Shown here: piece after piece, positions 46,901-49,900 of the stretch | Numbering within the stretch: the first letter of the stretch is position 1 | How the letters are laid out: each line of letters begins with the position of its first letter | DNA from: Candidatus Eiseniibacteriota bacterium | GTDB taxonomy: Bacteria; Eisenbacteria; RBG-16-71-46 | Length of the DNA: 64,000 nt | NCBI GenBank assembly: GCA_031370785.1 | Contig: JANMQY010000060.1 | Coordinates: 47,889 to 111,888 of the forward strand | Reading direction: 5' to 3' | Program-made: the position numbers

Positions 46901-49900
46901 TCGGCCGTGATCGCGAGCGGAGGCGGCGTACACAATCCGGCGCTGATGGGCGCGCTGGCGCGACGCCTCGGGCCGGCCCGGCTGGAACGCAGCGACGATC
47001 ACGGCGTCCCGGCGGGCATCAAGGAGGCGCTGGCATTCGCATTCCTCGCGCACCAGACGCTGTGTGGCCTGCCCGGCAACGCGCCGGGCGCCACGGGCGC
47101 GGCGCGCGCCGTCGTGCTCGGGCACATCACGCCGGGCGTCGCACGAATGGGGGCACGATGACGATGACGACGACGACATGCAGTCGCAGGTTCGCGATGG
47201 CTCGCTCGCAGGTTTCGCTCGCGGCGCTGCTCACCGGCCTCATCGCCGCCTCGTGCGTCCCGGCGCCCAGGCCGGTGGGCACTGCCGAGCCGCCGCTGCC
47301 GGCCGGCCACCCGAGCGAACCGGTCGAGCAGGCGCCCTTGCCTGCGCCGACGCCCGCCCCACCGGCCGTGCCTGCTGACGCTCCTCAGAGGTTCGAGTTG
47401 CGCGAAGAGCCGACGATCGACGTGGGGATGGCGTGGGATCTCGACAGCCTTGTCGTCGATCCGGTCGAAACCGGCGGCTCCTCGTTCCAGCACGCGGGCA
47501 AGGCGCCGGACGGACTCTCCACCGGGTACGTCGGCGCGCTCGTGATCTCGCGAGGTGCAGAGGGCTTCCTCTTCGAGTTCAGGCAGCGGCGGGGCCAGAC
47601 GCCGCTGGTCCCGGGCGACACGCTGTGGACGACGCGGACGCCGGATCGCGTTCGGCCAGGGGATCGCATTCGCTGGAATAGCCGGACCTGGCGAGGCACC
47701 TTCAAGATCTTCGTGAATCCGCGCGGCAAGCTCACGATCGCCGCGCGGCTCCCGCTCGAAACCTATCTGAATGGCGTGGTGCCGGGGGAGATCGGGGCGC
47801 TGGACGAGCACCTCATCGAGGCGGGAAGGGCGCAGGCGGTCGCGGCGCGCAGCTACACCATGTTCTACCGCGGGCGTCGCGCCGCCGAGGGCTTCGACCT
47901 CTACGGCACCGTCGAGGACCAGGTGTTCGGGCCGATCGAGAGCGAGCGTGCGGTCGCCACCCGCTGCGTCGAAAGCACGCGCGGCACGCTCGCGCTCGCC
48001 GGTGGCTACCCGATCCGCGCCAACTACTACTCCACCTGCGGTGGCATCACCGCCGACGTCTGGGAAGCCTGGCCGGCGCCGCCGCTCTCCTACCTCGTGA
48101 GTCACACGGACGCCGGAGACAGCCTCGACTGGTGCGCCAACTCGCCGCAATACCGGTGGACCGAGCGGTGGAGCGTCACCGAGTTCGGGGCGAATCTGGC
48201 GCGATTCGCCCCACAGCAGGGCCTCGCGCTGCCACCGGGCGGGGTCGGAGAGCTCATCGACGTGGTGGTCGAGGCGCGCTCGCGTTCCGGCAGGGTGTGG
48301 CGGCTGCGCGTGATTACGACCACCAGCGACATCCTGATCCCCGCCTACTCGATCCGCCAGGTGCTGCGTCGCGGTGGGAACCCGACCGCCATTCTTCGCT
48401 CGAATCTGTTCAAGATCGACGTGCGCCGTGAGCCGGGGACGCGTCGCGCGCTCGAGGTGCTGGCCAGCGGCGCCGGCTCTGGACACGGCGTCGGCCTGTG
48501 CCAGACCGGAGCGCTGAGCATGGCGAACTCGGGCAGGAACGCGGCAGCGATCCTCGAGCAGTACTACCGCGGCGTCGACGTGAAGAAGCTCTATTGAGGC
48601 GCGAAGCAAACCGTCGGCAGACGCGTTTTCAGCCGCGCTTCCATTGACACTCGGCTGGGCACGCGGATATTCTCCGCCGGCTTTTGGCGCCCGGGCGTGC
48701 CTCGGTGCGCCGAGCGGGGTTGTAGTTCAGTTGGTTAGAACGCCTGCCTGTCACGCAGGAGGTCGCGGGTTCGAGTCCCGTCAACCCCGCCATTCGTTCG
48801 CGCGCTGATCGCGCCCGCGCCCGCTCGGGGCGCGGGCCTTTCTCTGGGCCAGGGAACCGCGAACCCGGTCTGCCGCAGTGCCTCGCGCCAGCCGCCACCG
48901 GCCTCCGCTGTCGCCGACCGCTGCCGCCGATCGCTGCCGCCGATCGCTGCCGCCTCGCGCGATCTCTTTCCGTCTCTCGCTGCCCGACGACGTGCCATTC
49001 GCGACGCTCGCTGGCATCGTCTCTCTCGCCTGTCAGCGCGGTCTCGCACCGCCTCATCGGAACCTGCTCGCGGCGCCTGCCGGCGCCTTCTCGCGACTCT
49101 CGCGACTCGCTGCCGGACTCCGCTCCGCTCCGAACGCGTGGCGCCGGACGCCCGAGCGGAGCAAAATCGAGCTTGATCCGGAAGCGTCGAGGGCCGATTT
49201 CTTATTGACGGGGGGGAGGCGCTCCGTATACTGCCGATGCTTTTTTAGAAAGCTACGCAAATCGAGACCTGTCGCGATGCATCTCAAGGCGCGGCGTTCA
49301 ATCGAGTTCCGACCCTCCCAGGCGCAGGGCGCGCGAGGAAATTGCTCGAGGTTGCCATGATCAAGAAGAAGGGACTCCCCGGCGACGAAGAGTTTGAAGT
49401 CATCCCGGACGACGAAGCGGACGATTACGACGACGAAGAAGGGGAGGACGACATTCTCGAAGACGACGACGAGCTCGAAGAGGAGTTCGAAGACGACGAC
49501 GAGTTCGACGAGGATGTCGAAGATGAGTCCTACGGAGAGGACGACGACGAAGAGTTCACCGATTTCGAAGAAGACGTCGAAGAGGAGAGCTAGTCACCCG
49601 ATGAGAATCGGATCAAAAGGAAACCCGCGCGCTGAGCGCTGGCTCCGTGGAGGTGGCTGACGAAATGACCGGTTTCGGCCCTCACCTGATGATGGACGGA
49701 TACGGGTGTGACAAGAAGAAGCTCCAGGACCTGAACCTCATTTACCGGCTTCTGGATGAACTGCCTACCCGTATCGGCATGACGAAGATCATGCCACCGT
49801 ACGTGTTCAAGTACAGCGGACTGAGACCGGAGGACTGGGGCCTGTCGGGCTTCGTCCTCATCGCAGAGAGCCACATCAGCATCCACACCTTCCCCGAGAA

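Follow-up and report, generated by a model that had tools for sequence, protein, structure and literature searches.

The DNA analysed here, which we call the window, is a stretch of 64,000 nucleotides from a Candidatus Eiseniibacteriota genome (G000, rated 100% complete). On its forward strand, a tRNA-Asp gene and a terminator-like hairpin are followed by a promoter, two small open reading frames (ORFs), a gene with the SpeD fold, speB and a gene for an RlmI-like RNA methyltransferase (Table 1). The promoter presumably opens a transcription unit that runs from the first of the ORFs, which encodes a hyperacidic protein, through a short leader ORF, speD and speB to the rlmI-like gene; a -10 box upstream of the acidic ORF is also present in the 48 loci listed. 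Read depth was flat along the contigs in three metatranscriptome runs and one DNA run. When positions 48600-50300 were scanned against Rfam, the tRNA alone passed, everything else had an E-value of 0.8 or worse, and no riboswitch, including the SAM-I type, was detected. Consensus folding of the 5' leader of about 120 nt gave partial stems with little covariation and established no structure. The initial annotation had placed both small ORFs where we find them, and had correctly described the last codons of the second as the Shine-Dalgarno (SD) site of speD, with its stop 4 nt before the speD start.

Table 1. Features of the locus, in window positions.
Feature	Position	Strand	Evidence or remark
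tRNA-Asp(GUC)	48716..48789	+	Rfam RF00005, 75.7 bits; aragorn
Terminator-like hairpin, 3' of tRNA-Asp	48813-48837		terminator scan
Sigma70-type promoter TTGACG-N16-TATACT, then GC-rich stretch	49205..49232	+	1 site vs 0.2 expected
5' leader, ~120 nt, conserved GCATC words	49233..49356	+	
78-aa hyperacidic protein: M-x-K/R-K-K-G head, D/E tract, spaced F/Y/L	49357..49593	+	
19-codon leader ORF, R-x-x-R-W-L-R-G-G-G-stop	49601..49660	+	7 nt past the acidic ORF stop
Strong Shine-Dalgarno of the decarboxylase gene, within the leader's final three codons	49649..49656	+	duplex energy
SpeD-fold pyruvoyl decarboxylase, most likely arginine decarboxylase (SpeDA)	49665..50108	+	PF02675; TIGR03330, 85.5 bits; genome context
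GC hairpin 5' of speB; present also at speD-less loci	50131..50162	+	
speB, agmatinase-family ureohydrolase	50193..51086	+	TIGR01230, 222 bits (cut-off 174)
RlmI-like RNA methyltransferase, fixed downstream anchor of the locus	51095..52279	+	NF053718, 318 bits, below cut-off

Sources that name these SpeD-fold proteins at all label them SAM decarboxylases, and so did the initial annotation, but the label is probably wrong. Genome context makes it quite likely that the protein is an arginine decarboxylase (ADC) of the SpeDA kind, in which case the annotation would be corrected. The genome contains no match to the spermidine synthase family (PF01564) and none to BpsA, to the pyruvoyl-dependent ADC family (PvlArgDC) or to the AAT-fold decarboxylases (OKR_DC_1); the only decarboxylase of the alanine-racemase fold is LysA. 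The genome does encode SpeY (NF001980, 571 bits), on contig C15 and unlinked to the speD locus, and the SpeB gene adjoins the SpeD-fold gene. Since SpeY uses agmatine (PMC13625781), an arginine decarboxylase is needed, and the SpeD-fold gene is the sole candidate found in this genome. Li et al. (2023, PMC10407285) report that speD homologues decarboxylate arginine in genomes that lack speE and canonical speA and possess speB and speY; with neither speE nor a canonical ADC or ODC found here, and both SpeY and SpeB present, this published criterion for a SpeD-derived ADC fits. Two other assignments fit less well: a bona fide class 1b AdoMetDC, as no partner aminopropyltransferase was found in this genome, and an ornithine decarboxylase (SpeDC), as the diagnostic Gln, Thr, Phe and Tyr around the cleavage site are absent (VLIAESHISIH here against QLIETSLxSGHF in the ODC domains of the supplement to PMC10407285).

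In the family, the SpeD-fold gene and canonical speA are largely mutually exclusive: by a hand count over 89 related, non-independent genomes, 33 carry only the SpeD-fold gene, 33 only speA, 13 both (about 24 being expected by chance) and 10 neither, a paralogue being present in four of these last ten. SpeY family members were found in 78 of the 89. None of the 33 speA-minus loci has lost the catalytic Cys, whereas losses in three lineages have removed it from 5 of the 14 speA-plus loci; two copies outside the family also lack it, in genomes (76% and 90% complete) in which no speA was found. The processing residues Ser, His and Cys are kept, with ESH, IHT and FSC aligning to the T. maritima and A. 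aeolicus chains. Among the closest relatives that carry a title, many belong to Ca. Eisenbacteria, and the closest ones outside the phylum (DPANN archaea, deltaproteobacteria and others) adjoin speB or speY; a protein search with the enzyme returned close relatives only, none of them assayed. In a speD-speD-speE-speB cluster whose proteins are themselves unassayed, the second SpeD is 47% identical to the protein studied here and the first 30%; in this layout, known from Vampirovibrio, the second copy was found to be an ADC (PMC10407285).

That the same gene encodes a genuine SAM decarboxylase, which would serve a divergent aminopropyltransferase and be controlled translationally by polyamines, is most improbable. 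The protein passes the AdoMetDC cut-off of TIGR03330 (85.5 against 75.65 bits; a canonical-looking copy scores 143.9), yet it reaches only about 50 bits to solved AdoMetDCs. The proline of its HTFP motif is kept, which would also agree with SpeDA if, as we infer, it corresponds to the conserved proline that PMC10407285 describes as compatible with that activity. Aminopropyltransferase candidates are suggested by weak PF01564 matches in 68 of the 89 family genomes (at most 88 bits, nearly all within long frames) and by strong ones in two of five deltaproteobacterial genomes with close homologues; three small archaeal genomes with close homologues gave none. The near-exclusion with speA, the lack of any decarboxylated-SAM consumer found in this genome and the lack of another agmatine source for SpeY and SpeB all tell against this reading.

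The first ORF encodes 78 residues, of which 48 are Asp or Glu (62%, where about 60% had been stated). It had been reported to have no NCBIfam match, and we found none in NCBIfam, Pfam or PDB; its ESM Atlas cluster consists of 63 members, hypothetical proteins of Eiseniibacteriota. Across the family the protein is kept at about 60-87 residues with a basic M-x-K/R-K-K-G head and spaced aromatic residues. Change in the head is mostly synonymous, and the differences listed against a near strain include third-position changes. For 41 genomes without a SpeD-fold gene the locus was fetched via the methyltransferase, which gave 30 loci, nine of them too short or rearranged. The acidic ORF is kept in 19 of the 21 informative speD-less loci and lost in two (18 of 20 kept if L170, from the unpublished genome G038, is left out); 16 of the 19 lie before speB, and the other three before the methyltransferase, with speB also gone and the next gene 186-265 nt away. 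Because the ORF persists without speD, and even without speB, it appears to be a separate protein and no leader of speD. The product is probably a disordered polyanion, most likely a nucleic-acid mimic or a partner of basic proteins.

The composition of this ORF raises the alternative that it is itself a sensor of polyamines or Mg2+, in which destabilisation of the ribosome by D/E runs would set the ribosome flux to the leader and the enzyme. Nascent chains rich in acidic residues can abort translation, a behaviour that mgtL and mgtQ use for sensing (PMC11162784, PMC8092293), and the ORF ends 3-9 nt from most leader starts. The alternative is nonetheless very unlikely, given the intact ORFs at speD-less loci, three of them also without speB and far from the next gene, and given a conserved length and basic head that suggest a product. 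By analogy, the acidic chain may as a side effect alter how many ribosomes enter the leader, but the ORF is independent of the polyamine genes, which makes this unlikely as its purpose.

The second ORF encodes the leader peptide MRIGSKGNPRAERWLRGGG. Its Gly codons contain the SD sequence GGAGGTGG, and its stop ends 4 nt 5' of the enzyme ATG. The predicted SD duplex amounts to -14.0 kcal/mol at the enzyme start against -6.8 kcal/mol at the leader start, for which the last codons of the acidic ORF supply a weak SD. Among 51 de-duplicated loci, the stop lies at exactly 4 nt before the start in 34, and it has been swapped to TAA in one locus and to TAG in another. When each frame is examined for an ATG 17-21 codons upstream with no stop in between, 25 of the 51 loci have one in the leader frame, compared with 1 and 0 for the two others, which agrees with the frame preference of the initial annotation. 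We also ran on metagenomes a DNA pattern that comprised only codons -10 to stop and the next start codon, and that covers Trp-type leaders only, in a set overlapping the genome set. It matched 58 stretches, 55 of them directly 5' of a speD-like start; without duplicates, three non-speD rows and one short row, 46 distinct stretches remained. An ATG at 17-21 codons is present in 35 of the 46 (1 and 0 in the other frames) and any start codon in 42, and in four loci of this set TTG replaces ATG at the same codon. The pattern itself never required this upstream ATG.

Substitution patterns point the same way. For codons -13 to -4, eight hand-picked Trp-type pairs give a pN/pS of 0.31 in the leader frame and of 2.68 and 1.09 in the other two, and seven cross-genus pairs give 0.44 in frame when the defining Trp codon is left out. 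For ten pairs from a group defined by the tree only, dead leaders included, the values are 0.68 in frame against 1.19 and 0.90. Selection on the peptide at a fixed distance from the stop is thus present outside genus g22 but absent within it: here pN/pS is about 1 in every frame, and W-L-R has been lost with the leader start, stop and frame mostly kept. Leaders of g22 often have a good SD spanning the acidic ORF stop, and their R-A-x-R-G overlaps a 6-bp hairpin that outlives the loss of the leader ORF. Judged from frame and substitution patterns, the leader is very probably translated, with its peptide under selection in most genera.

Conserved positions are best counted from the stop. Of 33 leader-bearing loci, 30 have Arg at -10 and 29 have it at -7; the pair occurs in both leader types and is the only non-SD feature that they have in common. 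Trp-6, Leu-5 (coded by CTC, CTG, TTG or CTA), Asn-12, Gly and Ile are likewise conserved at fixed distances, whereas the N-terminal half varies by 1-3 codons in length. Four-Arg runs occur in several lineages, and family leaders in the pattern-selected set have a median of 5 Arg in 17 codons; the window's own leader, with 4 Arg in 19 codons, Pro at -11 and no upstream Arg pair, is only modestly Arg-rich. At -17, -13, -12 and -11, 72 of 82 Arg codons are AGG, AGA or CGA and one is CGC, against genome-wide shares of 11% and 62%, respectively. Because the Gly, Ala and Leu codons of the leader are similarly skewed to A/T-ending forms, the rare Arg codons may reflect low structure instead.

The GGG-stop end is also produced by the SD alone in deltaproteobacterial homologues and so is no evidence for a leader, a caution that the initial annotation had already raised. 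Among the loci listed, no leader was evident before homologues outside Eisenbacteria, nor before speA (five loci, one of them wrongly picked) or speY. One further SD-stop-start match occurs in this genome, with no sign of a gene behind it. A selected hairpin that sequesters the SD was rejected: the SD is predicted to be mostly paired, yet the median quantile is 0.49 relative to synonymous resampling of the enzyme's first codons (20 loci). In 49 of 51 loci the SD pairs with a His codon that reads CAC, and the other His codons of the gene are equally biased.

The fate of the leader follows that of the enzyme. Among the enzyme-bearing loci of the family, the leader is intact in 27 of 33 speA-minus loci against 3 of 14 speA-plus loci, by a criterion of intactness fixed after the sequences had been seen and with a quick tree, and 9 of the 14 speA-plus loci form one clade, for about three or four events in all. 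Intact leaders that start with ATG number 22 of 33 and 1 of 14, respectively; two of the three intact speA-plus leaders start with CTG. Six speA-minus loci have lost the leader as well, three of which are a clade without adjacent speB. Loci without speD show three states of the leader: absent, decayed (L147, with a deleted speD and a leader that has lost its start and SD) or intact (L151, beside a short speD remnant). In these few independent events, decay of the leader accompanies deletion or redundancy of the enzyme. Taken together, the data support a translated, probably regulatory leader tied to the SpeD-fold gene. Of the two ORFs that had been assigned upstream of speD, the leader thus belongs to that gene, whereas the acidic ORF is kept where speD, or speD and speB, are gone.

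For an arginine decarboxylase, two signals are plausible: too little arginine or too much product. We favour, with a probability of roughly 40%, a leader that acts as an arginine-supply gate on the decarboxylase, in an operon that would convert arginine to agmatine for the SpeY homospermidine route. Spacing and SD suggest that ribosomes leaving the acidic ORF begin to translate the leader after a further 3-9 nt, and the acidic protein would contribute to the leader only through this supply of ribosomes. The footprint of a ribosome extends about 12-15 nt beyond its P site, so that a ribosome pausing within the last seven leader codons would sit on the SD; a pause higher up would withhold the ribosome that would otherwise terminate 4 nt from the enzyme AUG. 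With this geometry, a pause in the leader's last third is expected to block initiation on the enzyme, and pausing would mean OFF. The Arg codons at -10, -7 and -4, together with the rare AGG, AGA and CGA codons upstream, would be read slowly when arginyl-tRNA is short, and arginine would be spared from polyamine synthesis when protein synthesis needs it. Arginine auxotrophy was rejected as the motive, the argG family being present in 73 of the 89 genomes. Plain codon counting has no need of the conserved Trp-6, Leu-5, Asn-12, Gly and Ile; this, the window leader with its 4 Arg and Pro at -11, and the pN/pS of about 1 in g22 all weigh against an arginine gate.

Leu-5, Asn-12, Gly and Ile, all non-Arg residues under amino-acid selection at constant spacing to the stop, speak rather for a ligand-dependent arrest peptide, on which agmatine, its bis-guanidino product or homospermidine would stall the ribosome near R-W-L-R-G-G-G-stop, where it covers the SD. 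A stall that means OFF would suit product feedback, and SpeFL, a polyamine-pathway leader, binds a metabolite in the tunnel (10.1101/604074). We consider such a peptide a close rival of the arginine gate but less probable, since one large genus keeps start, stop and frame without W-L-R, the N-terminal half varies by 1-3 codons, and 18-19 residues are short against the 34 of SpeFL. The absence of peptide selection in g22 speaks for a constitutive relay or damper that senses nothing, its role being to link expression of the enzyme to that of the acidic gene or to hold a very strong SD in check. The chain of spacings, mostly 3-9 nt and then 4 nt, fits this arrangement, and coupling and occlusion of ribosome-binding sites by short upstream ORFs are common (PMC13285730); however, a relay would leave the conserved residues superfluous, and pN/pS lies well below 1 in the other genera, which makes it improbable. 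Amino-acid selection and loss together with the enzyme would also be expected of a released basic peptide of 18-19 residues that binds the decarboxylase, as a processing aid or arginine-mimic inhibitor, or binds the acidic protein, whose charge is opposite. A free peptide would not need a stop fixed to the base relative to the enzyme AUG, as seen in 34 of 51 loci, and the acidic protein survives without the leader; we regard this role as highly improbable.

The arginine gate need not stand alone: SpeFL joins rare Arg codons with ligand capture, and arginine and product sensing may therefore both hold here. Our fullest proposal, which is tentative and, as a whole, rather unlikely, is that the leader is an arrest peptide of 18-19 residues that senses both arginine supply and a pathway product, represses through the SD of the next gene, evolved for SpeDA, and is fed from a hyperacidic ORF whose completion may need polycations.

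To our knowledge, few bacterial metabolite-sensing leader peptides have been recognized. A literature search, which left subscription journals mostly outside, returned no leader peptide for an arginine decarboxylase or a SpeD-fold enzyme, and the leader on this probable SpeDA gene is real and apparently undescribed. Its reach is one family of Eisenbacteria; it is short, comes in dozens of natural variants, losses included, and is amenable to cell-free work. If our reading holds, a recently repurposed enzyme has gained its own substrate- or product-level control, and control by the leader would be relevant to how transferred speDA genes fit into host metabolism, which Li et al. (PMC10407285) pose as a question.

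The enzyme resembles published SpeDA in being a speD homologue without speE or canonical speA and with speB and speY (PMC10407285). It differs in that speY is unlinked here and arginine activity is predicted; in the portions of that paper available to us, Eisenbacteria are not among the phyla named and no regulation of speDA is described. For the acidic ORF, the nearest parallel is MgtL and MgtQ, sensors in which an acidic nascent chain likewise lies 5' of a cation-related gene and causes intrinsic ribosome destabilization (IRD; PMC11162784, PMC8092293). In those short leaders the acidic residues directly follow Met, whereas the Eisenbacteria ORF encodes a 78-residue protein with a basic head that is kept without polyamine genes. 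The acidic tail of the RNA polymerase delta subunit and prothymosin alpha also combine a Lys tract with a subsequent long D/E tract in which aromatics are spaced; the likeness is compositional only, and the protein here has no folded domain.

In eukaryotes, the upstream ORFs of AdoMetDC (MAGDIS and the plant small upstream ORF) and the fungal arginine attenuator peptide stall ribosomes at the end of a short upstream ORF and so block the main ORF. They do so by blocking scanning, whereas SD occlusion is proposed for the Eisenbacteria leader, which shares no motif with them and precedes an enzyme that is probably no AdoMetDC. Plant ADC is controlled by an RNA box and not by a peptide (10.64898/2026.04.30.721942), and direct occlusion of ribosome-binding sites by upstream ORFs has been described in general (PMC13285730). 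The closest comparison is with SpeFL, or orf34, the leader of Salmonella speF, which combines Arg codons with translational coupling (PMC6386406). Both are short leaders of a polyamine-pathway decarboxylase whose translation is needed or decisive for the downstream gene, and both have conserved Arg codons, an upstream one of them rare, together with conserved non-Arg residues, a likeness that is weak in the window's own leader. As far as the available descriptions of SpeFL go, the Eisenbacteria leader differs in having no HIRRxxH and no sequence likeness, 18-19 instead of 34 residues, and 4 nt to the enzyme instead of at least 257 nt, a gap that leaves no room for Rho attenuation. Stalling would repress here and induces there, and the enzyme here has another fold and another substrate and is the second gene of its operon. 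The leader may thus work like SpeFL/orf34, as a separate case outside that group.

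A second speD paralogue, divergent in sequence, lies downstream of a conserved Lys-rich ORF in all 17 fetched loci (L129-L145). Its N terminus is often extended, with no clear start, and the cleavage-site residues of the L136 copy are QSH. The Lys-rich ORF is preceded by a strong Shine-Dalgarno sequence and followed by a conserved two-hairpin element, the whole being flanked by a sigma54-type response regulator and uvrA. The genome that holds the window (G000) has the ORF, which there reads MAAKKKAAKKKGTKKKAAKKKK, and lacks the paralogue. Because the speD of the window stands behind the acidic ORF, one speD copy follows a hyperacidic and the other a hyperbasic mini-protein. 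The basic product is possibly a histone-like protein and possibly a partner of the acidic protein; alternatively, the ORF could be a Lys-sensing leader.

Throughout the family, the 5' leader upstream of the acidic ORF retains the word GCATC, once or twice, and in several loci from genomes with canonical speA it is cut to ~82 nt. Together with its GCATC words, this leader is a candidate protein-binding site or RNA element. The neighbouring tRNA-Asp is the only one that aragorn found in G000.

Positions of features in and around the window operon, and of the Lys-rich ORF
Feature	Position	Strand	Remarks
tRNA-Asp	48716-48789		directly upstream of the Asp/Glu-rich ORF, with the tRNA's own terminator between
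5' leader before acidic ORF	49233-49356		~120 nt; length kept across family
GC hairpin before speB	50131-50162		no U tail
Lys-rich ORF	G000 contig C52, near 3315	minus	19-26 aa; conserved; also in L129-L145

At six loci (L146, L147, L151, L213, L226 and L235), 5' or 3' stubs of speD persist, either in the interval that separates the acidic ORF from speB or after an intact leader; speD has thus been lost repeatedly and recently. Many speD-less loci retain the GC hairpin before speB.

Outside Eisenbacteria, a homologous speD-speB pair occurs in 15 deltaproteobacterial loci (within L071-L112), where a 183-aa HTH-cupin regulator, which we take to be PuuR-like, precedes it in place of the leader peptide. 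Regulator and leader peptide would be differing ways to control the same enzyme. A complete speD-speD-speE-speB cluster was found in MW495066.1 (L262), deposited as Microcystis phage MaAM05. Its neighbours are cellular-type genes, and the record may be of host origin; the cluster itself resembles the Vampirovibrio cluster.
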